Shown piece by piece: positions 40,811-61,816 of a stretch of 64,000 bases of DNA. A model generated the notes under the pieces. The model was not told the origin of the DNA, did no database searches, and worked only from the letters and a program-made list of their open reading frames with translations. Positions within the stretch are counted from its first letter, which is position 1. Every line of letters begins with the position of its first letter. Source of the stretch: Proteromonas lacertae (taxonomy: Eukaryota); the NCBI GenBank assembly GCA_002245135.1, contig NGBS01001199.1, forward strand, positions 1-64,000, given 5' to 3'. The translations under genes were made by a program, and so were the position numbers.

Positions 40811-41010
40811 ATCATTCGCTTTGATATTTGCATAAATACCTGTTATATAAAGTAGAAAATCTATTGGAACTTAATGAGCTATTTCTATTACTAATTTCTC
40901 TATTACTGAATCTGGAATTCCTACTCTCATTTTAACATAGATTCTTTGTTGACTGTTACAAGGATAAGGTAATCACTCAGCTATGGAAACTCAACGATCT
41001 TGATAAGGAG

Positions 41011-41313: not shown

Positions 41314-41450
41314 TTTCCTTTACTTTGCTTACTCTCGTTATTGTTTCTGGGAATCCCTAAGCACTAGTTTTATAATAAAAAATACTGTTTAAGTAAAGCT
41401 TCAATGTTCTTGCTCCCACCAGTTGAGAAGGTGCTCCTCGGAGTCGATGA

Positions 41451-42530
41451 TCAGCTGGGAGACGTACTTCCTAGTCTCAATAAGAGCTCCTTGAAGGTGT
41501 AAGATGTAATCGATCCTTGACTCTTGATAGTACCATCTCGTTTCTTTGCTTTACGACTCTTACTATTACTCAAGACACTTGCGTAAGTGATTGCTTTAGT
41601 AACTTCTTCCTGGTCCTTGTGCTTCACTTGAGGAGCTTCTTGCGGTGTCTCCTTCTTGAACATCATCAACCAACAGTAAGTATGGAGTAGACACTCCTCC
41701 ATAATCTGGACGATCTCCTTGAACTTCTCTTGAAGCTTAACGATATCATCTTCATAGTAGTACAGTTCAGTAATGACTTTACTATCTAGTCTATCGCACT
41801 TCTCCTTCATAATATAGAACTGCTCTAGCAAGTGATCGACCTCATTGTCGGAGATGTTAACATCTCTCAAGAGGCTTCTTGTTAACTCTCGATCAGCAAA
41901 GTAGTTCTCCTCCACAGCATTAAAGTAAGTGTTGATCTGGCAGGCTCCGTTCTTGATAGTACTGATGTACTCACAGTGCTTACCAAAGAGATTGTAAGGG
42001 TCCAGGCAGGTTGTCATCCACGAGACTGCATTAACCATCAAGCAATGGAACTTAAGTCTTAGACTAGCAGCTTTCTTATAGACTGGATAGTAGATCTCAG
42101 ACTTACACTTTCCCATCGTGTACTCTGCTGATATCATTCCTTCCATGGAGTATAGGAATAGACATGCCCGGCTCTGGTAAATGCTCTTCTCTACGATCTC
42201 ATGATCCTTCAACTCACAGTCGGTAATGCGATGTAGGCAAGTCCTTAACACTTCCTTAGCTTTGATCACTGACTGATGAACTACCTTGAGTAACATCCTT
42301 ATTGAGCTGTGAACTTCCAAGTCACTCTCAGTGATTCCTTTGTTAGCATTGTCGATCATGATAAAGTGCGTATCCAGAGCTAATTGTTCACACTCCGATA
42401 ACTTCTCTTGAGCTTCCTTGACTAGAAGAGTCCATTCATTACCTTCTTGGATTCCACGATCGGCCTTAAGAATACACACTCTCGGGTAGATTGGTAAGAG
42501 TCTCTTATCTGGTTGATGAATTGAGATCAT
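41451..42530 (-). CDS. Hypothetical helical protein (359 aa)
   Basis: Long intact ORF; no recognised motif. Confidence 0.7.
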   Translation of the reverse strand: MISIHQPDKRLLPIYPRVCILKADRGIQEGNEWTLLVKEAQEKLSECEQLALDTHFIMIDNANKGITESDLEVHSSIRMLLKVVHQSVIKAKEVLRTCLHRITDCELKDHEIVEKSIYQSRACLFLYSMEGMISAEYTMGKCKSEIYYPVYKKAASLRLKFHCLMVNAVSWMTTCLDPYNLFGKHCEYISTIKNGACQINTYFNAVEENYFADRELTRSLLRDVNISDNEVDHLLEQFYIMKEKCDRLDSKVITELYYYEDDIVKLQEKFKEIVQIMEECLLHTYCWLMMFKKETPQEAPQVKHKDQEEVTKAITYASVLSNSKSRKAKKRDGTIKSQGSITSYTFKELLLRLGSTSPS

Positions 42531-42570
42531 GTTTCTGGAGTAGGCAAGAAATTTGATAATAGCTTATCGG

Positions 42571-43155
42571 CTATGAGCTCTTCCTCTGAGGGTGTCGATG
42601 ATGATGATGATGATGACTTCTTCGATCCGATGAATCTACAGCCTGATGCTTTACGTACTTTCTCTTGACCCTGAATGTGAGCTGACGACATCTCTTGAGT
42701 TCTTCTCGTTGATCAGGAGTAAGTCGATGAGCTTCTCGGTTAAAGATCTCCTCGGGACTTAGAGTTCTTTCAGTCATGCTCCCATCCTTGTTAAACTTAA
42801 AGATCATTATCGTGGCGTCCAGATCGATAGTGCAATACTTACACTTCCTATGAGAGTCTTGGTCATTGTCAGAGTCACTTCCATCCATAGAGTTGTATTC
42901 CACTCCTTGATAAATTACCTTACTGTACTTTTGCTTACCACTGATAAACAAGTCCTCGGAGGATTCATTGAGTGCCTCAATGCTTCTTCGGGACTTCTCT
43001 ATCTCCTTTAAATCTTGATCCAACTTCATTTGAATCTTGCTCCTTGTTCTCTCATCCACCTTCTTCACATTCACGTGGACGTGTTTATTCCTTTGCTTAC
43101 TCTCACTTACTTCATCGATGAGTTCCCAGACTTTCTCGGGATAGATGATCATCAA
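42571..43155 (-). CDS. Hypothetical protein (194 aa) with a His-rich tail
   Basis: Intact ORF, co-oriented with its neighbours. Confidence 0.6.
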   Translation of the reverse strand: MMIIYPEKVWELIDEVSESKQRNKHVHVNVKKVDERTRSKIQMKLDQDLKEIEKSRRSIEALNESSEDLFISGKQKYSKVIYQGVEYNSMDGSDSDNDQDSHRKCKYCTIDLDATIMIFKFNKDGSMTERTLSPEEIFNREAHRLTPDQREELKRCRQLTFRVKRKYVKHQAVDSSDRRSHHHHHHRHPQRKSS

Positions 43156-43192
43156 GTCTCCATCCTTCCAATAGCCCGAGGTAAGCGATTGC

Positions 43193-43708
43193 TTATAAAC
43201 CGATCGATAGCTTATAGCGATCAGTGTACTTAGGATTCACTGTTGAAGTCTTGAGCTCTCCGGTCTCAGTAAAGAACTTTGCTTTCAATGAACCTAGTTG
43301 ACTTCTACTATCCTTCATCAAGAGATAGAACGGGTGCTGACGATCGCAACCTGCTGGAACATCCAGGTAGATTCCATCACTCACAGTCTCATTGAACTTC
43401 CTTGAGTTGAATACTTCTACTTCGATCTTGAGGTCCCATAAGAATCGTAAAGCATAACCTTTGTGCAGATCTCGGTACTCGAATATAGATGGGTAGTCGT
43501 ACCTCCGAAGCTTCGTTGAATCTCTGCATCCACAAACGAAAGGAGTGCATCGATAGATTGGAGGAGTAAGGACTGGGTAATGTTGATAGTCGATAGCTAA
43601 GTCCTTGGAGATCTCAGGTAATGTCTTCTCCGAGGATTGCATGGTAGGGACTGTCATCTTTATCGATGAGCTATTGATGGGAATCATGCTCTTCAGGAAT
43701 TCATTCAA
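43193..43708 (-). CDS. Hypothetical protein (171 aa)
   Basis: Intact ORF, co-oriented with its neighbours. Confidence 0.6.
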   Translation of the reverse strand: MNEFLKSMIPINSSSIKMTVPTMQSSEKTLPEISKDLAIDYQHYPVLTPPIYRCTPFVCGCRDSTKLRRYDYPSIFEYRDLHKGYALRFLWDLKIEVEVFNSRKFNETVSDGIYLDVPAGCDRQHPFYLLMKDSRSQLGSLKAKFFTETGELKTSTVNPKYTDRYKLSIGL

Positions 43709-43757
43709 TGAAGGGAGTAGTTCAACTTTTCCTATTGAAATAACCCAAGTGCTTACA

Positions 43758-44111
43758 ATGCCTAAGAAACTTACCCAGGAGAGTGATGAAGAGATCTACG
43801 AGGTTGATGATCCCTTTAACAATGAACCTGACGATGACTCCTTGAAAGCAATTCACTTGAATCTTCCATGGATCCAGATTGCAGGCTTTGCAAGTGATCT
43901 CCAGAACTACTACCATCAAAGGGTAGCTAACAACATTAACTATTCTGAATCAGGTCCTGATAGCTTCATCCTCCTAGATGATCTTCATCGTCTATACGCA
44001 GAAGCCAAGTGGTTAGCAAGAGATCTAAAAGCTGATCTGATGGATGCTGAAGGTACCTTGGAGGAACGCGTTGTTTCAAAGTCCAAGGGTGGTAAGAGAC
44101 GAAGACTCTAA
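43758..44111 (+). CDS. Hypothetical protein with a basic C-terminus (NLS-like KGGKRRRL)
   Basis: ATG at 43758 chosen to avoid overlap with 43193-43708. Confidence 0.5.
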   Translation: MPKKLTQESDEEIYEVDDPFNNEPDDDSLKAIHLNLPWIQIAGFASDLQNYYHQRVANNINYSESGPDSFILLDDLHRLYAEAKWLARDLKADLMDAEGTLEERVVSKSKGGKRRRL

Positions 44112-44265
44112 CTAGCTTAACAACACCCCGAGATAATTCACTTGCTTTATCATCACCTTCTATCTTATTGGGATCAATTTTACATGAGTAAAATCATTTA
44201 TACATGATTGCTTAAGACCGAGAATTCATCTAGTTACAATTTTCCAAACGATCCCGACAAAGTCT

Positions 44266-45042
44266 ATGAGTCCCAGGAAGTCATCACGCAGATCATCATC
44301 ATCAACCAACTCTAGCATTGATAAGTCATCCAAGGAGGGTAAGAAGCTCCGAGTAAAGAAACAAGGAGCTAGTAGTAGAACCATAAGGATGTCATCACCT
44401 ATGATTACGGAGCAAGGTAAAGCAACACTCCGGGAAGAACTCATTAAAGCCATTGTGGATAACTTAAGCTTATTAGCAACCATTGCTCCAGACTACGTTA
44501 ACGATGAACCTTTAAGTACACCACCATCTACTCCTAAGAGACTTACAAGGAAGAACACAGCCCGAGGAAGTAAACAACAACAACAACAACCAAGGAAGAT
44601 GAGCCCAATTAAAGTACCGAGGACATTAGTAGCTACTCGTAAGGCCGGGAATAAACGAGATGTTAGAGTTCATCCAGGATGCGATCGTAAGATACCTTTA
44701 AAGTCCAAGGATGAAGTTAAGCTTATCAAGACTTCTTGTAATGAGACTGGAGGACACGATGCTATCCAGGTAAAGGATCTCGCTTCTTGTAATGGCACGG
44801 TGATACTAGTTAGTCTAGATGGACAGATGATTATGGAGATGGATCCAGACCACAACCAGATAAGACTTCATTTGGATCCTGACTTTAACCTAGCAAAGGA
44901 ATCCATGGAGGTATGGGACAATGCATTCTACGTTCCTTATAATGATACTAAGAACTTCTTCCGAGTCTGTGATGATGCTTTAACCTTGTTGAACCTCCCG
45001 AGAATGGCATCTACCTTCAAGAAGATGGTGAACCACAAGTAG
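44266..45042 (+). CDS. Hypothetical protein with a basic S/R/K-rich N-terminus
   Basis: Intact 258-aa ORF. Confidence 0.65.
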   Translation: MSPRKSSRRSSSSTNSSIDKSSKEGKKLRVKKQGASSRTIRMSSPMITEQGKATLREELIKAIVDNLSLLATIAPDYVNDEPLSTPPSTPKRLTRKNTARGSKQQQQQPRKMSPIKVPRTLVATRKAGNKRDVRVHPGCDRKIPLKSKDEVKLIKTSCNETGGHDAIQVKDLASCNGTVILVSLDGQMIMEMDPDHNQIRLHLDPDFNLAKESMEVWDNAFYVPYNDTKNFFRVCDDALTLLNLPRMASTFKKMVNHK

Positions 45043-45369
45043 TTACCTTATAAGCTTAGTTCATGTACTTACGACAGCTGTCTTGTCTTGGGATGATAAA
45101 CCTTTTCCTTTACCTTGATGAACTTTAATATCAGCTGATGAAGACCTCGGTAATGCTCTTATTGTTGATTGATAAGAACCCTCTTAGCAAAACAATACCG
45201 TAAAGACAAGGGATAAGTAATTACTTTAAGGAACATCAAGAGCTGTAAGCTTATTGATAACATCACCTGTCTTGTATAGTAGCTCCTCCAACTGCTTATC
45301 ATCAGGAGTATAAACAACGACCAACTTGTTGATGATCTTCAAGTAGCTCTGATTCAACGATCGGATACT

Positions 45370-46296
45370 TTACTTCTGTTCATCATCGTGATACTTGAGT
45401 TCTTTCATCAGCTTTAGGCACTTTACAAGATGACCTTGAATGTATACTGACTCCTTCTTCTTAAGAGTTGATGATATTCCCATGGAGTTGCAATAACTTT
45501 TCTTGGACTCCTTAGTTAAGCAGGTGAGTTGGATGTGATCATTAATGGAACCTAGGTACTTCTTAAGGCAGTAAGGACAGAGACCACAGGAAATGTTCTT
45601 ATCGGTGACTCTAGCAGCAGTAATCACGGGATTATCAACATCGATCACGTCCATTGGATTAGCAATCACGGTATAATGATATTGAACTTGATCATCCTCC
45701 TCGGCTTCTAGGTAAAGTAAGTAAACAAAACGATCAGGAGAAGTCATCGGTAAAGTACAGCTACTGCGTCTGGCTAATCGTAAATGCGATCCCTTCAATT
45801 GATAGATGTGAACACCCACGTTATTGTTCTCTTCAAAGGAGTCGATGAGTCTGGAAGATGATATTGGATTTGCTATAGGGTGTTGGTAGTTAATGATGTA
45901 CTTGCTTAAGTACTTGGAGTACATCTCGGGATTCTCAATGGCTGCGTTCTTACTGAGTTGATGATGATGAAGAGCTGCGATTGCGGAGTAAGCAAAGCTG
46001 AACATAGCAATACGTACATTTATAATACTGCTAGGATCAATCACTTCCTTGGGCACCTCCAGCAGTGCTTCGATGAAATAAACTTTGTTGACCCGTGACT
46101 TCTTAGCTGGATGATCCTCAGTTGCCTTATGAAGTTCCTTATGTGATCTCTTGACCTTACCTTCGGAGGATGATTCTACCAGTGGTGTGTTGTTGCTTAC
46201 CTGGGATAGTTGAGAAGCTAAATTGAAGTCCCTGGAGGAGTCTTGTTCTGTGACTACTTTATCATTCAATGGAGATGTTGCTTGGGTTGGATCCAT
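45370..46296 (-). CDS. Stand-alone vOTU-like plus Zn-finger domain homologous to the pPolB N-terminal region
   Basis: IINV..MFSFAYSAIAALH..FEENNNVGVHIY..VYLLY..HYTVI..CPYC..HIQLTC aligns by eye to polB VINL..MCFLFSVAAGLH..FEQLNHITINIF..VNLLI..HYMVI..CQYC..HQKENC. Confidence 0.75.
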   Translation of the reverse strand: MDPTQATSPLNDKVVTEQDSSRDFNLASQLSQVSNNTPLVESSSEGKVKRSHKELHKATEDHPAKKSRVNKVYFIEALLEVPKEVIDPSSIINVRIAMFSFAYSAIAALHHHQLSKNAAIENPEMYSKYLSKYIINYQHPIANPISSSRLIDSFEENNNVGVHIYQLKGSHLRLARRSSCTLPMTSPDRFVYLLYLEAEEDDQVQYHYTVIANPMDVIDVDNPVITAARVTDKNISCGLCPYCLKKYLGSINDHIQLTCLTKESKKSYCNSMGISSTLKKKESVYIQGHLVKCLKLMKELKYHDDEQK

Positions 46297-46347
46297 TTAT
46301 ACTTCACTAGGTAAATGATTTCAACTATTCAAGGCTATCGAAGTTAC

Positions 46348-46716
46348 CAATTGTAAACTCCCGGTTCCACGATTGGTTTCCACGGTTCAATTAAAAGCCC
46401 TTACAAGGTCACCAGCGTAGCAAGGAGAGTCAAGAGCATGATTAGAATCATCACCTCGAGGTAACCAACACTTCTAGATAGCTTCCAGGAGCACCCGTAG
46501 GAGATCGTCTCATAGATAGGTATAGGTAGGTATAGGAAGGTATTGATAGGTATAGAAATAGCTTAGAGGAGTCCCCGTAGGAAGTAGACTCTGTTGAGAA
46601 GTAGACCCTGTTAGGAGGAATCCCGTAGGAACCTTACGTAAATGGGACTATGGTACATTATGCCAGAGTTCTAACGAGTTTTCTAGGAGTCCGTCCCCTT
46701 CTAGATTCAGAGTTGA
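46348..46716 (+). repeat. Near-identical direct copy of the right terminal repeat 60960-61328, truncated inside the hairpin
   Basis: Constant offset of 14612. Confidence 0.95.
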
Positions 46717-48176
46717 ATACTTTAAGCAGCCAGCTGTTTACTTCAACTACGAGAAGATCCGAGACAAGGGAAAGGTACTTAAAGTATTCGGAGGAGTTGC
46801 TAGTGGGGCAACTCCTCTGAAGGAGCTTCATCACTCTATCCGACTAGTCCAGGATGATCTCATCGGTAAGCCCATATCAACAAGAGCAATCGTGGACTTA
46901 GGAAACCTCATCGGTAGATGCATAGTCAGTGGTAATGTCCGAAGATCCGCAGAGATAGCCTTTGGAGAACATCACGATGAAGAGTTCCTTAACCTCAAGG
47001 ACTATGATCTCAACCCAGACAGAAGCTCCTTTGGATGGGCATCCAACAACAGTGTCTTTGCAATCAAAGGAATGGACTATAGCAATATAACTGAACGCAT
47101 ACGGAAGAATGGAGAGCCTGGTATCTGCTGGTTGAAGAACATGCAAGAGTATGGACGGCTAGGCGATCCAAAGAATAAGAAGGATCGAAGAGTTCTCGGT
47201 GGTAATCCTTGCCTAGAGCAATCGCTGGAGTCTTATGAGATGTGTTGTCTGGTAGAGACGTTTCCTTATCGTCATCATAATCTAGGAGAGTTCTTAAGGA
47301 CATTGAAGTTTGCTTACCTATATGCCAAGACTGTGACTCTGGGGATGACTCACTGGCCAGAGACCAACAGAGTGATGTTAAGGAATAGAAGGATCGGATG
47401 CAGTATCAGTGGATAGCGCAGTTCATTGATAAGTACGGAGTTGATATTCTCAAGACTTGGATGGAAGAAGGCTATTCAACTATCCAACACTGGGATAGGA
47501 TCTACTCCGAGTGGTTCTGCATTCCACGATCAATCAAGACAACATCGGTAAAGCCAAGTGGTACAGTCAGTCTACTTGCTGGAGCAACTCCAGGGATTCA
47601 CTTCCTCAGAGCAACTACTACGTTAGAAGGATTAGGATAGATAAGAATAGTCCATTAATTAGAGTCTTGAAGCATGCAAAGTATCCGATTGAAGATGACT
47701 TCTATTGCCCAGAGACAACCTCGGTGATCTCCTTCCCAGTCGAAGTAAAAGGAGTTAGAACTATCAAGGAGGTACCGATGTATGAGCAGCTGATGTTGCT
47801 AGCCTTCGTTCAGAAGTACTGGGCTGACAATCAAGTGTCCTGTACGATTACCTTTGATCCGAAACTAGAAGGGCCCCATATTCAACACGCACTAGACTAC
47901 TTCCAATATCAACTCAAGGGAGTATTATTCTTACCTTCAATTGCCACTGACCAGATGAAAACAACCTACCCACAGATGCCTTATGAAGAGATCTCCAAGG
48001 AGGAGTATTACCGACTCCTACAACAAGTATCAGAACCTGACTTTATCAGAAGCTCCTCAAGGGATTATAAGATCGATCTAAGTCCCGAGGAAGTTCAAGG
48101 AAATGAACTAGATGGAGACTACAATCAACCATTCCCGATTGAAGTAAGCTATTGTGATGGTGATCATTGCCTTTAA
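46717..48176 (+). pseudogene. nrdJ: Class II (adenosylcobalamin-dependent) monomeric ribonucleoside-triphosphate reductase, 5'-truncated, two 1-nt frameshifts
   Basis: FGGVASG, VSGNVRRSAE, GEPG, NPCLEQ, RNRRIG, TSVKPSGTVSLLAG, WADNQVS, YPQMPYEEI, C-terminal YCDGDHC. Confidence 0.93.
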
Positions 48177-48353
48177 GTAAATTACCTAAGTGATCTTAAA
48201 GGTTTTATGTAGGGATGGACAATAATCAAAGTAGATATCATCGGATAGGAGATGATAAGGGACGTGATAATAAGCATCTCCGATAGATCCTAGACGATGA
48301 TTGCAGTAGCCCGTAAACAACTCAAGGTTATTAACAATAAGTGATTAAGGAAC

Positions 48354-49433
48354 TTAGAAGTATCTGGATAAGGTCGGTATTTGTTGGGCCTGTTGCTGAT
48401 AGACTCCTCCGAATGATGGGACGTAAGCAGCATAAGGATTGTAGTTAGAGTAGTAGTTCATTGATGCTGGAGGAGTAGGAAAGGATGATTTTGTAGATCT
48501 CTTACCTTTAACAGTCTTAGTAGTTTTCAAAGGAGCCTGAATAGGAACCTGCATGGGAACTTGTAAAGGAATTGATGGGGAAGTACTTGCTGGTGTTGCT
48601 AGTCCAGAGGTTGTTGGATTGCCAGACAAGGAACTTACTATCGGTGAATTGAAGTAAGTGTATGAGGGTGTAGAACTGGATGATTGATTCTCTTGCTTTA
48701 CCTTAAAGCTATCGGTAGTTACTTGAATATCATCTTTGGGAATAGATGTTGGGGTTGGTAATGAAGTAGGAACTGATGTAGCTGACACTGATGAATCAGA
48801 TACAGAAGCTAGTTTAAGATCGTCAAGGATCTTATGAATGTAAGTGTCCTGACTCTTAACTTCATCGTTGAGGAGGTTGCTAGAGTGCTTTATAGTTTCC
48901 AAGATCTTGTCCACGATCTCTGATGATAGACGTACTTCCTCGGGAGTGAGCTTATCAGCTTTTGCTTTAGTCTCTTGAAGTAGTTGATAGTAGGAACGAA
49001 GATGTTTTCGTAAGTCAGCGTATATGGCTACATAGTCAATGATCTTGTCCTTGCTGCGGATGGACTTCAAGGTCTTGGTTAAGTTCTTGATAGTGACATC
49101 TTTGGATGACTGTGCCGAGGAAGTTGTCTTGCCTCTGAGGAGCTTCTTCTTAAGTGTAGTGCTAGCAACAGTAGGAGATGCCTTCGATGATTTAGATATT
49201 ACTGGTGCCTTGAGTGCTAAGTGCTTATTAAGCTTACGCTTCTTGGAGTCATTGGAATTGGTGGATGACTTCATAGCCTTACTACGCTTAGCAATTGAAC
49301 GTGAATTCTTTACCTTTACGGGAGTGATGATAAGTACCTTGGACTTCTTATGAGTAGAAGTAGCCATAGGCTCACACTGTTGTAATTCAAGGCTAGAAGA
49401 AGTACGGGTAGATAATGCTTGTTGAGTATTCAT
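48354..49433 (-). CDS. Hypothetical K/S/T-rich protein (359 aa) with a Y/Q-rich tail
   Basis: Long intact ORF, low complexity. Confidence 0.65.
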   Translation of the reverse strand: MNTQQALSTRTSSSLELQQCEPMATSTHKKSKVLIITPVKVKNSRSIAKRSKAMKSSTNSNDSKKRKLNKHLALKAPVISKSSKASPTVASTTLKKKLLRGKTTSSAQSSKDVTIKNLTKTLKSIRSKDKIIDYVAIYADLRKHLRSYYQLLQETKAKADKLTPEEVRLSSEIVDKILETIKHSSNLLNDEVKSQDTYIHKILDDLKLASVSDSSVSATSVPTSLPTPTSIPKDDIQVTTDSFKVKQENQSSSSTPSYTYFNSPIVSSLSGNPTTSGLATPASTSPSIPLQVPMQVPIQAPLKTTKTVKGKRSTKSSFPTPPASMNYYSNYNPYAAYVPSFGGVYQQQAQQIPTLSRYF

Positions 49434-49964
49434 AAGGCAAAGTCTCTCTAGGAGGATCAGAAAAAGTTAAATACAGAGATGCCTGTTAAGATAAGTTCAT
49501 CCCAAGAACAACGCCTGGTAAAAGTTAATCAAAGAGTATTTATCGATAGAAGAAGTTACTTAAGGTATAGAGTTCATAGCAACCCAAAGAGCTATCAGCA
49601 TCATCATTAGAAGGATGGTAATCAAGATACTTCGGATCAATCTACAACAACTACTATGCTCAATAGCTGGGTGATCTTCAAAAAACATCTGGACATTTAA
49701 GATAAGGAGGATTCAAAGGACGCTTACCAGCACTTCGTCATGACAGAAGAACTCACGGAAGCTATAAGTCCAGGAACGACAACTTCTTTCAGCTATAAGC
49801 ACTAAGCGATCAAAGTCAAAATCCATTGCTCGGTAAGATCCAAGGAAATGAACGATTAAGTAAATTGGTAACTCCCGCCGGAAGAAGTTCTGAAGTGTTA
49901 ACAATTCCGAAGTGAGTTATGAATCGACATTCCCGGCATTGATCAATTTCCTTGCCTTTCAATC

Positions 49965-50837
49965 ATGGTCATCTCAACTACTACTAGATCGATTGCTCCT
50001 TACCGTCCTCCTTTACTTATCGGTGAATCTACTCCCGAGAATGATCAACCTCAAATAGCCTCCATCAAAGCAATGCCTTATGAACACACTCACATGGAGT
50101 ATAGCAACAGCCCGCAATTCGTCAATGGATTACCAGGACTCACCAGTCAAAAGAATCGATCTTCCTATAAAACAGCCTTCAATCAACTCTTAGGCATTGC
50201 TCATCCTTACTACTACAACCAGGGGATCTCCATCGCTATCCTCAAGACAATCATTGTACTTAACTTTGATGATACCTTATTCCCAACCTCCTATATGATG
50301 AAGAACTACTGAGAAGACTTCGATCAGAGATGTTCCCTTAACAACCTCGGGGTTGAAGATCATAGCATCATGCAGCAACTGGACTATACCATCGGTCAGC
50401 TCCTTATGCATTGTATGAGCCTATCTTCAAATCTACCGATAGTGATCCTTACCAATGCTACTCGAGATCATGTCTTTAACATCACTGAGAGATTTTACCC
50501 AGCCTATGTATATCAACTACTGCTCGATGAATATAACTTCTTCGTCCTCTCGGCAAAGGAACGATATGGACAATTGAGTTACAATAACAAGATGTGGAAG
50601 GTGGAAGCACTTCAATGGATCATGAACTACTACTTCGATGGTCCGATAACAAACTCCTGGGAAGATGACTTTGCCGTCAATGTTCTATCAGTTCCAATCC
50701 TTAAGAAGGCGATTCAACTAGAAGTTGGCCAGGCTGCTGATGGTAAGAAGCTCATTGGTACCATAGAGAAGTTGAACCTCAACCTTACTTCCTTCTGTAG
50801 AGATCTCCGATCCTTCCACGTCCACTTAAAGAAGTAA
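49965..50837 (+). pseudogene. HAD-superfamily-like protein with an in-frame TGA (50310-50312)
   Basis: TIIVLNFDDTLFPTSY motif-I-like (first Asp is Asn), VILTNA, LSAKERY..WK; the frame continues into ORF 50370. Confidence 0.65.
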
Positions 50838-51169
50838 TTACTTAGACTTTGTTTATTGTTTGTTGTCTTGGGGATTGCTTAAATAACACTAAGCGTCCCC
50901 GTAAATGATCTCCTCAAGACAACAAGGCAATGAACAATTGTAAAGACACTTCAAAGGAACCTCTAAGAACAACACCGAGATAGAATAGAACAAGAGATTA
51001 TCAGGTTTAAGTAATGCTAGTTAGTCCTCACCTGAGGATTCAACATCCGTAGCTTCAGTAAGGTCAAGATCACTGAGAAGATATTCAGTAAGTACTTAAC
51101 CTTCAAGGTTGGCTGGAGGAAGTCCATGTACTGCTTCATCTTCTTACTAGCAGTAAGCTGCTCGATGTC

Positions 51170-51595
51170 TTAGCCAAGGAGATACTTCAAGGTTCTTAAT
51201 GCACCAGAGTAGAGGATAAGTGGCATGTAATGGCCCAGTGGGATGTATCCATAGTCTTCTTCCTTGCTATTGTTGTATCTGATAAGCTTACAGCCTTTCT
51301 TCATCCTGGTCATGATATGTCTTGGACCTTTAAGTAAAGTCGTAGGAAGCAGATTGAGCTTCATAAGGTGACAATGGAACTTGGCAGAAAGGTTCTTAAA
51401 GTATACACAGTCATCATCAGGAGTAGGATCGGTATACCTGCTCATCACTCCGAGATTCCTTATCTGTTGCTTCATGGAGATGAGGTACATCTTGATGAAC
51501 TCATCGGAAAGATCCTGGTTGTCATCCTTCTGGTTAAGGATCACGTACTTAGCGTCTTCATTCAAGGTGATCTCCTCCGACATGTTTATAATCAA
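51170..51595 (-). CDS. Hypothetical protein (141 aa), duplicate of 15777-16202
   Basis: Identical translation. Confidence 0.55.
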   Translation of the reverse strand: MIINMSEEITLNEDAKYVILNQKDDNQDLSDEFIKMYLISMKQQIRNLGVMSRYTDPTPDDDCVYFKNLSAKFHCHLMKLNLLPTTLLKGPRHIMTRMKKGCKLIRYNNSKEEDYGYIPLGHYMPLILYSGALRTLKYLLG

Positions 51596-51619
51596 GGTAA
51601 GTTATCACAGACACTAGCT

Positions 51620-51904
51620 TTATCGGGTATTGTCAGCTATGAAGTCTCTTACCATGTCTATGATCTCAGCATTGAAAGGATCATCATCATCGTCTTCATC
51701 CTTGGAGTTAGTGATTGTAAGTGAAGATTTATGAGGTTTAGGAGGGAAAGGAGGAGGAACATCATCATCAACAGCAACAGCCATCTCAGCCTTCAACTTC
51801 TTATACTCCGACTTAAGCTTAATTCTGAACACCTTAGTGTCTTTCTCATCGCTAGAAGATTCCTCTAAGGCATTGATAGGTCTGGTTCTCTTCATGATAT
51901 TCAC
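51620..51904 (-). CDS. Hypothetical protein (94 aa), duplicate of 16227-16511
   Basis: Near-identical translation. Confidence 0.55.
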   Translation of the reverse strand: MNIMKRTRPINALEESSSDEKDTKVFRIKLKSEYKKLKAEMAVAVDDDVPPPFPPKPHKSSLTITNSKDEDDDDDPFNAEIIDMVRDFIADNTR

Positions 51905-52359
51905 AGATCAGAAAAGACTCAATGGAGATTTTAACAATTGTAAAGTCCCTGTTCCACGATTCTATTAAAAGCCCTTACAAGGTCACTAGCGTAGCAAGGA
52001 GACTCTAGATCGTGATTAGATTCATTGTCTTTAGATGGCCAACACTTGTAGATAGCTTCCAAGAGTCCCTGTAGGAGATAATCCTGTAAAAGATCATCCC
52101 GTAGGAAATCGTCCCGTAGGGAAGAAGACCTACAATTGATTAATTAATCGATGTTATTACTTCATGGCATATTTGATGAAAATCATCCGCCATTTAATGC
52201 TGAGAAGGATAAATCCTATGAAATTTTGTGTACTTGCTACACATTATATGATCTGCTTAAATTAACAATAATATTTAATAAACTGAAAAAATTACATGTC
52301 TTAATAAAGATTTAAATAAGATTTTCTGATAAAAAAATCGATTGATCACCAAAACAACC

Positions 52360-54058
52360 ATGTGAAGTCACTGTCAAGAATATTGTTGTTACAGAGTCTG
52401 AAGAAGAGAAAATTAGAGCGCTGGTAAATCAATCTTGTAGTATTGGAGAAATTGCCTTAAAAATGGCAAGAACCAAGAGTAGTATTTGGAAGTACTTACA
52501 AATTATGGGGTTGAAGACAACCAAAGCCAAATCAAGTATTTCACCACCTAAGGTTAGAAGAGGGAGAAAGCCAATTATTTTAAACTGTATCATTAGTGGG
52601 CAAGCTGTTAGAGATTATATCTTGAGAAGTCAAGATAATGGCATTACAATTCAATCTGCCAAAGCACTCAGAAATGTGCTACTGAAGAACAGCTTAATCC
52701 CCTTATCAGTATCATTAAGTACAATTCGTCGTTACTGTAAATTATGGAAGATCTATTTTGGAAATAGTGGAGTTTGTCCAAGCTTGACCGAAAAGAACGT
52801 TGAAGAAAGATTAATGACAATATCTCAAAACATATTCTTGGATAATAAGACGATTATGTTCTCAGATGAGTCGATGATTAGACTTGAAATGTTAAAAGTG
52901 TTGGATTAATTATCACTGAAAATGTTATTAAGTATGGGAATATATTCAAAGATAACGTAACTAAGGGAATAAATTCAGTTAGATATTGTCGATTTTTAAA
53001 GAAAACTTTACCGCCTCTAATTAAACAGCATCCATTAGTAAATCATCAGAGACAATGTTATTTCTTACAAGACAATGTCAGCATACATAAAAGTAGTTAT
53101 ACCACAGAATATCTTCTGTGCCATTTGTCATAGTTGGCCATTTGTCTACCAGACACTTTTAAAACAAACTAAATGTATATTCTTACTTGTCTTGATGAAA
53201 AATTGTTACTTTTATACTTACTTTGTTATATGACCTACCTCTGCAGTAAACTTTTTTGTTAATATAAATAGTTTAAATATTTGCGCCATTTGTTTTCTAG
53301 AAATTTTTGAATCAAACTAAATGCATATTTAGCTAATATAGACTAAAATCCATTAGCTGAAATGATTAGAATATAATAATTATTAAATCTTTCTATATAA
53401 AAAAGAAATGTAAAAAATAGGCTTGAGTGAGGCTTGATTCTATATTTTCTATTTTCATTTTAAATGTCTTATGATCAACATTAAGTTGTTCTAATCATTT
53501 CAGCTAATGGATTTTAGTCTATATTAGCTAAATATGCATTTAGTTTGATTCAAAAATTTCTAGAAAACAAATGGCGCAAATATTTAAACTATTTATATTA
53601 ACAAAAAAGTTTACTGCAGAGGTAGGTCATATAACAAAGTAAGTATAAAAGTAACAATTTTTCATCAAGACAAGTAAGAATATACATTTAGTTTGTTTTA
53701 AAAGTGTCTGGTAGACAAATGGCCAACTATGACAAATGGCGCACAACATCTTCAAAGGAACGGTTGAAAACCTATCAGACATCCACCGTTTTCTCCAGAC
53801 TTAAATCCTATTGAAAAGGTCTGGGCAACTCTAAAACACAAGATTAGTGAAGATGAAAACAATTTCAAAGACTTAGATAGCCTAGAAGAAGCTGCAAAAA
53901 GAATTTGGAATGAAATAATGTCAAGCCAAGCCACCAGACATAAATATGCTTTTAGATATCGTGAAGTATGTATGGCATGTCTTTACAAACAGGGTGACTT
54001 CGTTCTAGACAATGACATTAAACGAATTAGAAAGATAACAAACATCCCAGAAGAGTAA
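52360..54058 (+). pseudogene. IS630/Tc1-like DD34E transposase, disrupted
   Basis: HTH SIGEIALKMARTKSSIWKYL, IMFSDES, LQDNVSIH, PFSPDLNPIEKVW; interrupted at 53117-53748. Confidence 0.88.
53117..53748. mobile_element. Foldback MITE of the Ginger-like family with 5-bp TSD TCTTC
   Basis: About 255-bp near-perfect inverted arms, right end GGCGCACAACA, TCTTC at 53112-53116 and 53749-53753. Confidence 0.92.
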
Positions 54059-54847
54059 TTAGCCTAAAAGAAGGTTTTATATAATTTTTGTAGGGGATTT
54101 TCATTTGATTTTATGTTGGCCAAAATTAATACATATAATATAGTAGCCATTTAAAATATTAAATCAAAAGAATTTCAACTAGTTAGCGTTTAAAATAATT
54201 CGAAGAATATATAGTATATAAATGGGACTCTGGCATATTGTACCATAGTCCCATTTACGTAAGGTTCCTACGGGATTCCTCCTAACAGGGTCTACTTCTC
54301 AACAGAGTCTACTTCCCTACGGGAACTCCTCTAAGCTATTTCTATATCTATCTATGAGACGATCTCCTACGGGTACTCCTGGAAGCTATCTAGAAGTGTT
54401 GGTTACCACGAGGTGATGGTAATGAAGAAGCAGTGATCTCTTTCGGAGTATGGGTAAGAACGTCTCAGAGGAAGCTTCCTTACCAAGGACGATGTTGCGG
54501 AGCAATATCGGACTTGGATAGGAAGGTTCCGTCGTAGACGTTCTTGTCCATGCCCGGAAGAAGAACTGCTTTCTTCATTACCAGGATCATTGAGAAGGTA
54601 CTTTCATTTGATCATCATCCAGGGTTGTTGAATCTCTTGGAGTTGTTGCTGCCCAACAAAGCAAGGTAAACTATTTGCACCATGGTTGGGCAGCTCCGAA
54701 GGTGGTCACTGACTATAGTTATCCTCTTGCTTAGACTTCCTCTATCTATCTATTACTTTCTCATAATAACAGTCTAGGTATCGGCTTCTCCTGTAATGTT
54801 TTTGATCAATCCCAAGACAGAACCTTATCAGGTAAAGCTTACTATCA

Positions 54848-57322
54848 TTAGCTGAATAAGGAAGTACAAATGAATGTTGTAGTAGCTGTAAATGAAACAG
54901 AACCATTGTGATTGTTGGTGTAGTTGAAGTTATCATAGCCATTATAAACGAAGTAGTGCCAGTATGCTGTTGAGTCTGTACGTTTTATCTTATAAGTCCA
55001 GTAAGTGTTTCTCTTATCGAAATGGAAGACCTTTCGGAACTCAACGAATTCTTTCTTATCAGGGTCGGTGAATGCAATGCCGGCATAGGCATTAACATCC
55101 ACTGATCTTCCGCTAGTCGTTGTCATGGTAAGCTCAATTCTATTTGGATAAGCAGTTAAAGTTCCCTTCATAGGCCCACCATAGCCATACTGTAAAACAT
55201 CCATATCAATATTGATCGCCCTAGCGATTACCAGATCTTGACTCTCAAGGACATACTTCCACATTGAAGTCAAGGTCTCATTTATCTGATTAGCTACCGT
55301 GGTAATCTCCGATGATCCATCTCCTTGAGATGCCAGGCTTTCTACTGATGTCTTCAACTCCGTTAACTTCTTCTGGACGTCCTGAACATTGCTATCGACT
55401 GAGTTGATCTTACTTAATTGAGCTGCACTGGTAAAGTTGTTTACTTGAGTCACAGCCAGGTTGTTTAGGTTGTTGACTTTGCCTTGGACTTCAATGACTC
55501 TTGTCTGGCAGTCTCCTATCTTTGAATGTACTTCATTGACCTTGGTTAATTGAGCTGGTGAACAGAAGCTATTGACATTCCCGGTATTGAATCCATCGAT
55601 CTTGGTTCTGATAGCAGCTGCATTGTTGATAGCTGTATCGATCAGTCCTTTACGAGTATTGTTAAAGAAGCCATCCAAGTTCCTTCGTAGGTTGTCTTCT
55701 TCAGTCCTTCTAGCCACGCCGCAGGTTGCATTCACATCATTGATACTTAGAGAATCCACCTTGATCTTGATTGCATCGGTGTTGGCCTTAGTTGTATCAA
55801 TGAAGTTACCACGACCTTCAGTACAGAACTGGTTAATACTCTCCTTGTTGAGGTCATGGACACGTTCATAACACTTATCTATCTTCTCCGATCGATCCGA
55901 AGTACAGAAGTGCTTCACAGCAGTGTTGGTCTCATCGATAGCAGCACTTCTCGGGATAGTACAAAACTCCTTGATCGCGTTGTCAGCATCGTCGATCTCC
56001 TTAGTTCTCTTATCGGTAATGAATCCTTTGATCAGTTCCTCAATGCTCTTGACAATGGTAAGTCTCTCCAAGGAGCAGTAGTTGTTAATGTCTTCGATGG
56101 CTATGCCGGTGATCAGCTCATGGACTTTATCAATCTTCTCCTTCTGTGAGCTACTACAATACTGGTTGATATCATCGATATCTATCTTACTTACAATATC
56201 CTTGGTCTTGTCAATAGCGGTAGCTCTCTCCTCAGTGCAGAAGGTATTCGTCTTGTCAGCTTCTCCATTCAACCCGGCGATCTCTTCCTCCATAGCATTC
56301 ATCTGGTTCTTAAAGTCCTTGTTGTAACCATTGGCAATCTCAATCTCTTGTAAGACCTCCTTGAACTTAATCATGTTGTTGTTAATCACAGTATTGATTG
56401 CCTTGTACTCCTCGTAGTTGTTCTTCATCTTGATCAACTCCTCAGAATCTACTTTGATCTGCTTCTCTAAGTCAGTGAGCTTCGTAAGGCTCTTATCATC
56501 CACCGTAGTGATGTACTTGATCATATCATAGACGTTAACATCCCCGATGTTGAGACTCTCACATAATGACTTCAACAAGGTACTGAGACGATCCAATTTC
56601 TCATCCTCTGATCCCTTCAATTGATCGATTGAAGTATTGGTGGATTCAAGGGCATTGCTTACATCCTCCATGCTCTTATACAACTCTGGTAATTGCTTCT
56701 CCGTGTACTGCTTAAGTTCATTGCTGCAAGTAGCAATATTGCTCAAGGTTGTAATAGTCGTATCTCCGAAGTCTTTAGGGATCTTGTTGTTAAGTAAAGT
56801 ACCTAGGTTCTTAACTTCCTGGAGCTTCTGATCGATACCTTCAATCTTATCAGTCTCATCTAGCACTTCCTTTAAGGTCGATTGAATAGCTTTATGATCT
56901 GGTTGTAAGGTACCTTGAAGGTACTCATGGAGTTGTTGATGATCAGTCTCTAGCTTAGCCAACTTCGTAGATGACTCCTCCGAGTGATCATCCAACTTTC
57001 TCTTGATAGCTGTTGTGGATGAGGTTACTTCTTCTTGTTGCTTCTGATTGATACTGACGGGTGTTCCTCGGAGGACTTCTTGGATAGTGCTTACCAATGG
57101 AGGATTGATCTTATCATAGTCTATCACGGCCTTGAGTTCACCAGAACCCAAGGCCTTTTGAATCACTTCCTGGGAGTCTTGAAACAACATGTCCTTATCA
57201 TACTTAGCAACAACCTTCCCATCTATCTTTTGCTTCACATCGTAAGTAGTCTTGTCGATAGTATTAAGTAACCTTAACATCTCCTCATCGTTCTCCCGTA
57301 AGTTGTTCCCGGTGTTGAACAT
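54848..57322 (-). CDS. Fibre/spike-like coiled-coil protein (824 aa) with Cys-containing repeats and a beta-rich C-terminus
   Basis: Heptad-rich body, about 9 repeats of [IV]NxFC[ST]xxxxxxID, aromatic beta-rich last about 120 aa. The CDS is secure; the function is inferred. Confidence 0.7.
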   Translation of the reverse strand: MFNTGNNLRENDEEMLRLLNTIDKTTYDVKQKIDGKVVAKYDKDMLFQDSQEVIQKALGSGELKAVIDYDKINPPLVSTIQEVLRGTPVSINQKQQEEVTSSTTAIKRKLDDHSEESSTKLAKLETDHQQLHEYLQGTLQPDHKAIQSTLKEVLDETDKIEGIDQKLQEVKNLGTLLNNKIPKDFGDTTITTLSNIATCSNELKQYTEKQLPELYKSMEDVSNALESTNTSIDQLKGSEDEKLDRLSTLLKSLCESLNIGDVNVYDMIKYITTVDDKSLTKLTDLEKQIKVDSEELIKMKNNYEEYKAINTVINNNMIKFKEVLQEIEIANGYNKDFKNQMNAMEEEIAGLNGEADKTNTFCTEERATAIDKTKDIVSKIDIDDINQYCSSSQKEKIDKVHELITGIAIEDINNYCSLERLTIVKSIEELIKGFITDKRTKEIDDADNAIKEFCTIPRSAAIDETNTAVKHFCTSDRSEKIDKCYERVHDLNKESINQFCTEGRGNFIDTTKANTDAIKIKVDSLSINDVNATCGVARRTEEDNLRRNLDGFFNNTRKGLIDTAINNAAAIRTKIDGFNTGNVNSFCSPAQLTKVNEVHSKIGDCQTRVIEVQGKVNNLNNLAVTQVNNFTSAAQLSKINSVDSNVQDVQKKLTELKTSVESLASQGDGSSEITTVANQINETLTSMWKYVLESQDLVIARAINIDMDVLQYGYGGPMKGTLTAYPNRIELTMTTTSGRSVDVNAYAGIAFTDPDKKEFVEFRKVFHFDKRNTYWTYKIKRTDSTAYWHYFVYNGYDNFNYTNNHNGSVSFTATTTFICTSLFS

Positions 57323-58537
57323 TGCCTAGGTAATGATTCCAAATCAGAACTTTACTTATAGATCCAGGAGCTACTTTACTAATATGACTTCTCAGGTATC
57401 TGTTATATCATAACATGCCCTGGCCTTCAACAGCTTTGCCTACCTCCCGAGAAGTACCTTGTTAACTCTATCCACACGATGAACTTCAACTCCTTACGAT
57501 TACTAGCTGATGGATGTAGATGACTTTATCGGTCTTTGTAATGAGTTGCGTGATCTCTATGCTGTGAACTTCATAGTCTCGATCATCATCTACCATCTTA
57601 ACTTACAATGCTTCTATTCGGATAAGACTTATACGATAGTCAGAAGCCTCCTTTGTAGTTCAACTACTCTCCGTAGACTTCATTTGCACCTTTGACTTCC
57701 AAGGATCTACTAATCGTCTCTCTATTCCAGATGCTCCTTTACCTTCTTGGACTTCTCGGACGTGATAGACATTGCCTATGAAGTACTTTGTCTTCACTCT
57801 TGGTTCTAGCAGTCTATGATCCACTGCTATGGTAAGTACCTTGAGACTGATTGCTGAAGTTAGAGTTGATCTCATCCTTAACATCTCTTGAAGAACTACT
57901 TGTGATCTTTACCGATACATATCTCTTGAACTGATGGTAACCCTTCAAGTGACAATTCCTTCTAGTTCTAGTTCATCGAAGTTGTTGATCCTCAGTAATG
58001 TACTAGCCTTCAGTCTGATCACTACTAGTCTCGGTATTGTTGAAGTCAGTGTCTTTACCTATCTACTATTAATCACCTTACGATCGATAGCTTATAGACT
58101 CTTGGACATCAATGCCAGTGTTGCTACTTGAGGAGTATACGATATCTCTGCTCTACTTACTTGCTTACTAGTAATGATTCCTAGCATCACAAGTAAGGAC
58201 TACTTAGGTAAAGGATTATCCATCACACTTCCTATAGTCTGCAATTGTAACTCTTTATGTACCTACAACTACTTCATGATCTTCAGAGTCATTGATCCAA
58301 GGATGTTATCTTGGGGGTTGTTGATGTCCTTACTATCATTGACTTATCCGAGACTCCTTTAGTTTATTTAATTGATTACTTACCATGTCCTTGAGTTGCT
58401 CATCTCCGTAAGGCTCCTTGAATTGATTATTTCTATTGTCCTCGGTCATACCCAAGGTAACATTTTACTAAGTACCAACAATGTTAATCACGTTCCTTAT
58501 CAGGAGATGCGTTTACTACTACTACTACTTGTGGAAG

Positions 58538-59326
58538 TTATGATGACTTTGCCTGGTAAGGAGTTGCTTCAGAAGCTAGCTTCAGATGCTTCGCTGGAGG
58601 ATCACTTGAAGCAGCTCGCGATGGTACTGAGGGTGTTGTTATTGGTCTCTTCTTCGGAGGATTACTAAGCTGTTTTTGTCTCCTCATTGATTCTATCCTG
58701 AGTCGGAGATGATCTTCATATTGTCTTAAGCGATGATACAGACTCAAGAGACAGCACATCGGAAGTGACTTTACCTTTAGATCTACGTGAAAGTTGATGT
58801 GTCCATCTTTGATAGATAAAACTATCTTGGCCTGGCAAGACTTCTCTTTGAGGTGAGCAGCATCACATAGAAATGAAATAATCTTATCGAACATCCCATC
58901 ATGGTCGATTAGATCATTGTTGTCCTTGATTGTCTTAAGAATCTCATGTATACTGTGTTGCATAAGCTGATTAATTATATCCCTTGTTTTATCACTGGAG
59001 TTGATGGAGATTCCTGGTTGTTGATTCTTAGTAGGTTTCCCAGATCTACATCTTGGACAACATCGATAGTAGTCTCCATTGGGCTTTAACATCATCGATG
59101 AAGCGAAGTGCATATGGCATCTACTGCAGGACATAGTCTTGGCTATGAGTTCACTGTTCTCTTCCAAGGCTTTACGTTCCTCATGGCATCGGGCTATTGT
59201 CTTCTGCTTTGCCTTTCGCAAGAGAGCTCTACAAGAACTACAACAGCTGTATGCTCTTCCATCAGCTTCAGATTGGAACTCCTTCTTACATCGACTACAT
59301 TTGACGATGGATTGCATGGTTACCAA
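58538..59326 (-). CDS. Protein with two CxxC..CxxCR zinc-ribbon repeats
   Basis: KCSRCKKEF..YSCCSSCR and SCSRCHMHF..YRCCPRCR. Confidence 0.7.
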   Translation of the reverse strand: MVTMQSIVKCSRCKKEFQSEADGRAYSCCSSCRALLRKAKQKTIARCHEERKALEENSELIAKTMSCSRCHMHFASSMMLKPNGDYYRCCPRCRSGKPTKNQQPGISINSSDKTRDIINQLMQHSIHEILKTIKDNNDLIDHDGMFDKIISFLCDAAHLKEKSCQAKIVLSIKDGHINFHVDLKVKSLPMCCLLSLYHRLRQYEDHLRLRIESMRRQKQLSNPPKKRPITTPSVPSRAASSDPPAKHLKLASEATPYQAKSS

Positions 59327-59874
59327 TTAAGTATAAAAATAACTAGAAATATCTTAATGCCTTGAGTGACTGTAATAATAGACTGGTTACTACATATTGA
59401 TCTCATGGTTATTAGGTACTTGTTTATTAGCTTTACTTCTATGAGTACTTATTCATATCTATGAATGATGCTTAGTAGATAGTCTGTAACTTGGTTACTA
59501 CATACTGATCACTTAGATAAGCTATTGGAATTTAGCAACTAAGTGCAGGATCTATTTTCTATGTCCCTATTTTTAAACCTTATTTACGATGTCCTTATGT
59601 CCGGTCAGTTCAATTTTTCTTGGCCTTATCAGAGTTGTGAATGCACCTCCAACTCCTAGGCTTCTTGTAGTAGGGGTCACTCAATGCTTCCTAAGCTCCT
59701 GCTGTTGATCTCATTCCAGTGTTAGGGTATCTAGTACTGTACTTTATAGTGAACTGTTGATTACAGATTCATCTCTATTCAATTTTTTCTTTGCAGTTTG
59801 GATCTCTAATGTGGTTGATGATGGTTTTGATAGATACTAGAAGGCCATGTAGGCTGTGGTATGGATTTTATGCA

Positions 59875-59948
59875 GTATCAGCGGTGGGGTTCGAACCCGG
59901 AGGGGATGGGATGTTGGTACCTGGTCTGCCCACTAGGGCATCTTGAAC
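59875..59948 (-). ncRNA. tRNA-derived Pol III A/B-box element (Leu-tRNA-like ends, no intact cloverleaf)
   Basis: Minus strand reads GATGCCCTAGTGG (A-box-like) ... GGGTTCGAACCCCACCGCTGA (B box and T arm). Confidence 0.5.
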
Positions 59949-60189
59949 TTGCTTATGGATTGCTGATCCTAGTATATGTATTGTTCAGCTACAGTATTTA
60001 GTGAATAGCTTCAGAATGATTCCTATTCAATCTCCATTGGACAGATGATGGGGAATTGACCTTAAGAAATTGCTCATTAGCTTACCTCCAGTAACATCTC
60101 TAACAAGTGCTCAGGTAAGTTCCTACTTATCCTAGGCTTCCCAATCACGGTATCCACGTTTCTACGATTGCTTAGATGATGATGCTGTC

Positions 60190-60960
60190 CTCGGGAATGA
60201 ACTTTACCTTCAGGAATAAATAAACTAAACTGGTATGTAAGGAGCTTCCTAGTAGATGACTTACAAGGTCAATGGAAGATAGCTACAGAACCCTCCCGAG
60301 ATTGTTTATCACGATCTTCAAGGCCTTTGAGAAATTCAGAACTAGCTGGAGCCTCTTGAATTCAAGTCTTAGAAGGACAATGAAACTTACCTAGGCAATG
60401 ATCCTGTGGATGTTCCTTGACTTTGTAATGAAGTCTCTCTTGATGGAAGTTCCATGGCTTTGACGGGAGGTTCCTCCTTGAGTTACAACTCAAGGAGGAA
60501 CATCCCTTCCTTGCTAGATGATAGTTGAATGTTACCTAGTTGAATTATAAGGCCATTGTAACTTACCTCTAGGAAGCTCCCGAGAATGCTTACAATAATC
60601 TTCAAGGCCTTGAGAAAATCCAGTACTAACCAGAACCTCCAGTTGTAAAGTCACTGATTAATAGAAGAACCATCAAGACCTTCCCAGATACGTCCAGCCG
60701 TGCATGACTGCGTCAGGGAATCTCCCATCGTGGGAGATTCCCTTCCTTGCCAACACGGCTGTTCTTCTCGGGAAGATCTTGGATGAACTTACCTAGGAGA
60801 GTTATAAGGATGATAAAACATACCTTCAGAAGCCTTCCGAGATTGCTAATCATTATCTTCAAGGGCCTTGAGAAATCCACAACTAGCTAGAACCTCCCGA
60901 GTTACCATTTGGTAACTTGTTAACAATTGTTAACTTGTTAACAATTGGTAACAAGTTAAC
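60190..60960. repeat. Degenerate tandem array (three units roughly 260-285 bp apart) with embedded palindromes
   Basis: Core CCGAGA.TG...ATCTTCAAGGCCTTGAGAAA at about 60295, 60579 and 60835; perfect hairpins at 60470-60501 and 60715-60743; GTTAAC/CAATTG cluster at 60901-60966. Confidence 0.8.
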
Positions 60961-61250
60961 AATTGTAAACTCCCGGTTCCACGATTGGTTTCCACGGTTC
61001 AATTAAAAGCCCTTACAAGGTCACCAGCGTAGCAAGGAGAGTCAAGAGCATGATTAGAATCATCACCTCGAGGTAACCAACACTTCTAGATAGCTTCCAG
61101 GAGTACCTGTAGGAGATCGTCTCATAGATAGGTATAGGTAGGTATAGGAAGGTATTGATAGGTATAGAAATAGCTTAGAGGAGTCCCCGTAGGAAGTAGA
61201 CTCTGTTGAGAAGTAGACCCTGTTAGGAGGAATCCCGTAGGAACCTTACG

Positions 61251-61453
61251 TAAATGGGACTATGGTACATTATGCCAGAGTTCTAACGAGTTTTCTAGGA
61301 GTCCGTCCCCTTCTAGATTCAGAGTTGACCTTTACGGGAGCTTCATCGATGCAATCGATGAAGCTCCCGTAAAAGTCAACTCTGAATCTAGAAAGGGACG
61401 GACCCCTAGAAAACTCGTTAGGACTCTGGCATAATGTGCCAGAGTCCCATTTA
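61251..61453. repeat. 203-nt terminal hairpin (100-bp arms, 6 mismatches, GCA loop)
   Basis: Arms 61251-61350 and 61354-61453 compared base by base. Confidence 0.95.
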
Positions 61454-61816
61454 TATACTATATAGAAGAAGGATTTGGATTTTAGGCTCGAGCTTGACTT
61501 AATTTATTTTGTTAAATAGAAAGAGATATGTAATCTTATATTTTCAAAATTATATATTATGATGTTTTTATTTATGATATATTAGAAAAATCAAATAAAA
61601 AACAAAAGAAAGTTAAAAAAAATGAATCGAAAGGGTTTTTTGAAACTACTATTTTGCTTTATGAAATGAACGCATAGAATTACTGAGGAGTTTTGGTGAG
61701 TGAAAAGCACAACGAAAGTCACAAAACACGAAAGTGACGTGTTTTTCCTAACCCAGAAAAATACACTAAATATGTATGATATTATTAATAACATAAAATA
61801 ACTATGAAAATATATA

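Follow-up and report, generated by a model that had tools for sequence, protein, structure and literature searches.

The right end of a 7,257-bp virus-like element carries an imperfect hairpin of 203 nt. We consider the chances about even that this hairpin is inherited and likely acts as a fixed-orientation replication origin of an element of 7.3 kb that would have been inserted by an integrase from elsewhere. The element lies in a 64-kb window (the whole stretch of DNA that was analysed), and all copy counts of the hairpin and of its end module refer to this window.

A repeat finder and direct arm comparison place the hairpin at 61251-61453, with 100-nt arms (61251-61350 and 61354-61453) around a 3-nt loop. 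The arms mismatch at six positions: 61262/61442 (A.G), 61266/61438 (T.G), 61282/61422 (T.G), 61300/61404 (A.C), 61310/61394 (C.A), and 61330/61374 (C.A), which represent five transitions and one transversion. The predicted DNA fold has an energy of -108.6 kcal/mol compared to -21.5 +/- 3.2 kcal/mol for shuffled sequences (z = -27; 0 of 200 shuffles equally stable), and the hairpin folds equally well from either strand. It is by far the strongest of the seven short-loop palindromes in the window and the only intact long hairpin there. A perfect 11-bp hairpin is nested within the outer arm at 61421-61447; the inner copy is a 9-5-9 stem at 61259-61281 with mismatches at 61262 and 61266. The arm comparison and the fold thus bear out the sequence-only reading, which had described a 203-nt hairpin with 100-bp arms, six mismatches, and a nested hairpin. 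That reading had run the feature from 61251 to 61464; 61251-61453 stands as the hairpin while the last 11 nt (61454-61464, plus strand) are an unpaired TA-rich tail outside it, with an exact mirror at the left end of the element.

The long hairpin is seen in a single instance, as could be the case for a fold-back artefact of assembly or library preparation. However, the outer arm leads into the exact terminus and the target duplication, both of which are also found 7.2 kb away, and the left end repeats the outer alleles at two positions. A fold-back copy is also expected to be near-perfect, yet the arms differ at six places. We therefore regard an artefact as highly improbable.

The element is bounded by terminal inverted repeats (TIRs), spans 54208-61464, and has 41% GC in host DNA of about 22% GC. 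It is flanked by a perfect 6-bp target-site duplication (54202-54207 and 61465-61470, plus strand), the hexamer of which makes up 0.14% of flank positions. The 18-nt terminus has two exact occurrences, inverted, at 54208 and 61464; a third match has three mismatches. Only orphan genes are present. The larger, an ORF of 824 aa (54848-57322, minus strand), is predicted to be mostly helical with a beta-rich C-terminus and is fibre-like by resemblance only (single-sequence fold, pLDDT 37), and the other, of 259 aa (58538-59317, minus strand), has CxxC pairs. The 824-aa ORF had no match among 1.84 billion representative proteins. Neither ORF gave a useful match in Pfam, PHROGs, the same representatives, viral contigs, or the atlas, where scores were all under 0.9, and no related loci were found among the viral contigs.

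With the general profiles of Pfam and PHROG and a motif scan, no pPolB or other replicase, no rve or tyrosine integrase, no double jelly-roll capsid gene, and no packaging ATPase was recognised in the complete 7.3-kb unit. In the family DNA as a whole (about 21 kb), no initiator, nickase, polymerase, integrase, ATPase, or capsid gene was recognised in a scan of the long ORFs and 37 of the 54 listed shorter frames, the remaining frames having been scanned before or lying mostly opposite long ORFs. As to an HUH-SF3 initiator, the scan gave just two HUH motifs of the kind expected by chance, and nothing matched Rep. No autonomous partner for the hairpin family lies within the 64-kb window. One host gene in the window matches HYDIN and thereby suggests a flagellated eukaryote with an AT-rich genome, likely a protist.

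The hairpin belongs to an end module of about 510 bp (60953-61464, plus strand) that contains CCYGTARRA repeats and occurs next to four different interiors. Four tandem 16-bp palindromic boxes with an 18-bp period (60901-60970) lie at its inner border. Three direct repeats of about 100 nt, 73-78% identical, lie at 60253-60897 (plus strand), with hairpins at 60465-60506 and 60715-60743. Two GC-rich blocks elsewhere in the window, 14771-17850 and 40950-52130, share the tetranucleotide signature of the element (r 0.55-0.68), whereas comparison with the host block (18-33.5 kb) gives r of -0.06 to 0.12. Both hold related right-end modules joined to three other interiors, which makes four with the element's own, and for three of the four the homology starts at the palindromic box. 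All seven window matches to the boxes fall inside end modules (1.55 expected; 1 of 100 shuffles reached seven), as do 14 of the 15 CCYGTARRA motifs (2.43 expected; 0 of 100 shuffles).

The closest copy (46341-46716, plus strand; 99.2% identity) differs from 60953-61328 at 3 of 376 bases. It has a different interior, breaks off with 22 nt of the inner arm still to come, lacks the outer arm, and is joined to a 5'-truncated class II ribonucleotide reductase (RNR) gene. Divergent end modules lie at 51931-52130 and 16538-16799 (both plus strand), the latter with a gapped inner-arm relic up to the apex, and a divergent end copy at 17454-17541 (plus strand; about 83% identity) terminates with a fully paired 9-5-9 stem. 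The relic (16733-16799), absent from the earlier reading, scored highest among 264 tiles, at 44.9 versus at most 44.7 in 60 simulations, none of which attained its value, with gap penalties that were picked after inspecting the relic.

The blocks at 40950-52130 and 14771-17850 are head-to-tail chains of broken 41% GC units with all right ends on the plus strand, and no duplication was noticed at the block edges. The stretch 50164-52113 is duplicated at 14771-16720 with 12 differences in 1,950. Within the GC-rich family, the class II RNR gene at 46717-48176 is 5'-truncated and frame-broken. Its product is about 70% identical to Blastocystis-type proteins, and in a tree of this RNR and 30 sequences hand-picked from the top matches it groups with Cantina and Blastocystis (99/96), on a long branch that makes the placement unsure. 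A HAD-like frame at 50200-50837 and its copy near 14810-15444 have a DxDxT-like motif by eye and the same in-frame stop; a protein search with a 49-aa piece matched 0 of 5 candidates. A 308-aa ORF at 45370-46296, in the 41-46 kb block, loosely resembles the N-terminal region of a Polinton-type pPolB, although weakly (pairwise E 0.11; atlas 0.86 or lower), and its protein search matched 0 of 657 candidates. A miniature element with TGT...ACA ends occurs at 6255-6850 and 13756-14262, and one of its copies adjoins a subterminal fragment of the family at 13569-13755.

For three of the four broken right ends the break lies within the inner arm or at its apex (46716, 17541, and about 16799), and the fourth (52130) stops about 30 nt before the arm; the outer arm is kept in none of them. 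Under a null of 100 of 512 nt, this clustering has p = 0.025. As a TGT-ended repeat begins at 13755, the main count excludes this junction; with it included (3 of 5), p = 0.054. The earlier suggestion that the hairpin is a breakage hotspot thus finds modest support (p about 0.03). The 17.5-kb copy, for which it gave an endpoint at 17528, more likely ends at 17541, where the nested 9-5-9 stem is completed in register. The breaks fit cleavage of a cruciform in the chromosome and capture of opened hairpin ends equally well.

The left TIR (54208-54418, minus strand) corresponds to the right end without 164 nt of hairpin core and 30 nt of microsatellite-like sequence, with a few substitutions. Deletion of the 164 nt between direct repeats at 61273 and 61437 yields the left end with one difference in the last 61 nt. 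This agrees with the earlier claim that the left TIR consists of the outer and inner halves without the centre, as expected from a deletion between direct repeats; slippage across a hairpin between such repeats is described as a known process in the available text of PMC4134008. We favour collapse over expansion because the long form occurs on two other right ends. What is left is a short hairpin of 39 nt (54219-54257) in which two of the mismatches still have both partners. Beyond the 164 nt, the left TIR departs from the right by gaps of 30 nt and 1 nt and by about four substitutions that are not private to the right end (p = 0.08, substitutions alone), and the right end is nearer to the right end of another unit than to the element's own left end. 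From this pattern of divergence, this insertion is probably younger than the short left form, and the asymmetry may be native to the active element, both judged from a single left end.

The six mismatches are likely older than the insertion as well, and inherited. Two local drift rates are available, 3/376 between the 46-kb copy and the right end and 12/1950 in the local duplication, and at least six mismatches per 100 pairs have probabilities of 1.6e-4 and 4e-5, respectively, at these rates; if hairpin DNA mutates at 2%, p = 0.015. Since six mismatches exceed the drift expected at the two local rates (p about 2e-4), the arms likely differed before insertion, and the earlier view of the mismatches as inherited is probably correct. 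CpG deamination was ruled out as their source as none of the six is in a CpG.

The sequence-only reading had also called the mismatches conserved. The 46-kb copy reads the inner allele at five of the six positions, the sixth being beyond its end, and to this extent the claim holds, although the copy is near-identical and single-armed. In the inner-arm relic at 16733-16799 the first three mismatch positions carry the inner allele, and the left end shows both partners for only two of the six mismatches, the first two. The divergent 17.5-kb end, on the other hand, weakens the claim: the inner allele is kept at the first mismatch position and not at the second, and both positions that correspond to stem mismatches are Watson-Crick paired. 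In the 3' half-stem of this end four of nine bases have changed while all nine are still paired (six Watson-Crick, three G.T), a degree of pairing reached by 6 of 39,630 family 9-mers. As far as these copies allow a judgement, what is conserved across the family is the stem and not the mismatch. A check for flip/flop isomers revealed no flop form, the inner allele at 61262 being present in all four other inner-position copies, one of which is not independent. Nothing in these sequences indicates that the mismatches are needed.

In the origin model, an initiator would bind the palindromic boxes and the CCYGTARRA repeats, and a nick at the base of the hairpin would free a paired 3' end to prime copying. 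The nick is invoked because the 11-nt tail would otherwise block priming. The TA-rich tail would likely be the attachment end for the integrase, and the enzymes, integrase included, would be supplied in trans. Once chromosomal, the long palindrome would be unstable, which likely accounts for the collapsed left end and for the copies broken in the inner arm. The fold stability of the hairpin, the perfect 6-bp duplication, the excess of mismatches over drift, the age of the inner arm as documented by the relic, the pairing kept at the 17.5-kb end, and the concentration of boxes and CCYGTARRA motifs in end modules speak for this model, and the same model has been proposed for palindromes adjacent to target-site duplications in virophages as well as Polinton-like viruses (PLVs) of Halocafeteria, as set out in the available text of 10.64898/2026.07.28.741278. 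Against it, the window has one intact long hairpin and searches outside it gave no second copy, no gene for an initiator, nickase, polymerase, integrase, or capsid was recognised in the family DNA, and no flip/flop isomer was seen. Furthermore, the left end inserted or persisted with a 39-nt hairpin, such that the long form may not be required. Finally, the TA-repeat terminus also fits protein priming, and for this a hairpin is unnecessary.

This last point leads to a different reading, one that we consider possible though rather unlikely: the palindrome would be a passive fold-back that was fixed once in an ancestor, the element a non-autonomous unit of Polinton/PLV type that is copied by protein priming from its TA-repeat ends, and the mismatches a measure of the age of the fold-back. 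The 11-nt tail at both 3' ends prevents direct self-priming, and a panhandle of the TIRs is predicted at -325 kcal/mol versus about -148 kcal/mol for the ends folded separately. A pPolB gene of another element at 708-4385 and the absence of an outer arm from the 16.7-kb relic also favour a passive fold-back. Short terminal repeats serve slide-back initiation, and Kapitonov and Jurka reportedly put forward a terminal-repeat model in 2006. The Halocafeteria authors themselves, in the text available, name accidental annealing as the alternative (10.64898/2026.07.28.741278). However, palindromes with 100-bp arms collapse or break readily, as at the left end and in three of the four broken copies, yet here the arms reached 6% divergence. 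Maintenance of the long stem to this point suggests selection, and the 17.5-kb end retains its stem despite sequence change.

Another possibility is that the units come from a multipartite linear DNA virus whose segments, each several kb long with the same end module, integrate singly or are captured as broken chains. Four interiors adjoin related right-end modules, two of which share 373 of 376 bases; one tetranucleotide signature extends across all the blocks; and the cargo consists of orphan genes and class II RNR, for which we know of no precedent as cargo of such an element. However, no capsid, ATPase, or replicase is found in about 21 kb, only a single unit is complete, and known truncated virophages with regenerated TIRs look alike, as described in the available text of PMC8547959. 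We doubt that the units belong to such a virus. We attach the same low probability to its specific form, a segmented, hairpin-ended virus of an anaerobic protist, whose segments would carry different orphan genes (for a fibre-like protein, class II RNR, and others), would have in common an end module with palindromic boxes, repeats, the long hairpin with its nested stem, and a tail for the integrase, would be primed from the hairpin in fixed orientation, and would integrate one by one with 6-bp duplications. An Egovirus origin was also considered and rejected as no feature supports it.

The choice among these readings matters as hairpin priming in integrase-inserted, Polinton-like DNA is so far a proposal, according to the accessible portion of 10.64898/2026.07.28.741278. 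The hairpin end described here is four times longer than the published example and asymmetric, with six traceable mismatches and divergent relatives, and these properties mean that the hairpin-priming idea can be put to the test through covariation and the mapping of free DNA ends. Should the shared module be the mark of segments belonging to one virus, such a genome design would be new for eukaryotic DNA viruses; with a passive palindrome, the data would merely document palindrome decay in a non-autonomous element.

Several other features were observed in the window. At 708-5720 a pPolB gene (31% GC) that includes an endonuclease VII-like domain is followed by imperfect hairpins at 5207-5329 and 5509-5589 (z -11.8) and by 20-bp repeats; this is a second, unrelated element, possibly with hairpin-rich ends as well. 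The region 34908-38074 is Ginger- or Maverick-like, with one ORF for an rve integrase and another, judged by eye, for a probable cysteine protease; the rve ORF is a possible source of the integrase. A 647-bp palindromic repeat at 53107-53753 (274-nt arms, 97%) splits a Tc1/mariner transposase and is related to repeats at 9866-10167 and 34003-34304. Dense, very AT-rich genes, glycosyltransferase- and acyltransferase-like by eye, occupy 18000-33100.

In a literature search that covered mostly papers available without subscription, neither this family nor any long, nested, asymmetric hairpin on an element of this kind was found described, and the same holds for a protist DNA virus that is segmented and integrates. 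The available texts of PMC11296320, PMC12129017, 10.1101/2024.03.23.586382, and 10.64898/2026.10.13.758929 contain no closer case. Matches to the end pattern at 26 and 25 viral-contig loci and at 5 metagenome-contig loci were rejected as chance, as they were 26 nt long at most and all fell short of E 1e-3 when compared with the window. A scan of prokaryote genomes for the pattern gave 0 loci, phage records contained no match, and Rfam returned six generic miRNA-hairpin matches, all far below the gathering score.

Among known systems, Helitrons and Helentrons have no target duplication and a short 3' hairpin, and they were ruled out by the 6-bp duplication and the TIRs. In its unequal left and right ends the element resembles heterotelomeric parvoviruses. 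An imperfect terminal hairpin with a nested palindrome is shared with poxvirus and parvovirus ends. In parvoviruses and AAV the palindrome runs to the genome end, whereas here 11 nt separate it from the terminus, and there is no Rep match. Unlike a poxvirus or asfarvirus telomere, which is a covalently closed end with flip and flop isomers, the hairpin is subterminal, the unpaired tail and the duplication lie outside it, and the flop allele at 61262 occurs in 0 of 4 inner-position copies, which are few and integrated. Vaccinia mismatches are needed for assembly and packaging, and not for DNA synthesis or telomere resolution, in the available text of PMC8956199; because they serve packaging there, the analogy lends no support to an origin role for mismatches here.

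A TIR of about 210 bp with its terminus and a perfect 6-bp duplication are ends of the Maverick/Polinton/PLV/virophage kind. In the text available for PMC8547959, mavirus and Maverick/Polinton elements have target duplications of 5-6 bp, and among EMALEs there are short derivatives bounded by TIRs. TIRs of a few hundred bp, a duplication of 5-6 bp, and a GC contrast to the host are likewise shared with Maverick/Polinton elements and mavirus-like EMALEs, as far as the available parts of PMC6431247 and PMC8547959 describe them. Unlike in Polintons, as their gene content is given in the accessible text of PMC6431247, no pPolB, rve integrase, ATPase, protease, or capsid was recognised. Also unlike in EMALEs, the cargo includes a class II RNR, and the word hairpin does not occur in the available text of the EMALE paper (PMC8547959). 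We do not file the element as Polinton, PLV, poxvirus-type, or parvovirus-type, as the defining genes or end features of these groups were looked for and not recognised.

The sequence-only reading had considered a hairpin end unusual for an integrase-inserted element; this is contradicted by the virophages and PLVs of Halocafeteria seosinensis, which already have such ends. There, according to the available text of 10.64898/2026.07.28.741278, palindromes lie in the TIRs next to the target duplications in all complete members of virophage subtypes 1, 2, 5, and 6 and of PLV subtype 4, and they are tied to particular rve integrases and to non-pPolB replicases, with hairpin priming proposed. In the same text, the palindrome measures 52 nt (subtype 5) and the elements encode capsids and are about 24 kb long. 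In contrast, the element described here bears hairpins of 203 nt and 39 nt at its two ends, with nesting and an offset through the 11-nt tail; the unit measures 7.3 kb, no core gene is recognisable in it, and four interiors have the end in common. On the other hand, the palindrome lies in the TIR in both systems (here 11 nt from the target duplication at both ends), both are integrated in the genomes of protists (here a likely one), and fragments with TIRs that lack core genes are described from Halocafeteria too, in the text available. By analogy, the working mode of the element would be most like that of these palindrome-ended integrating elements.
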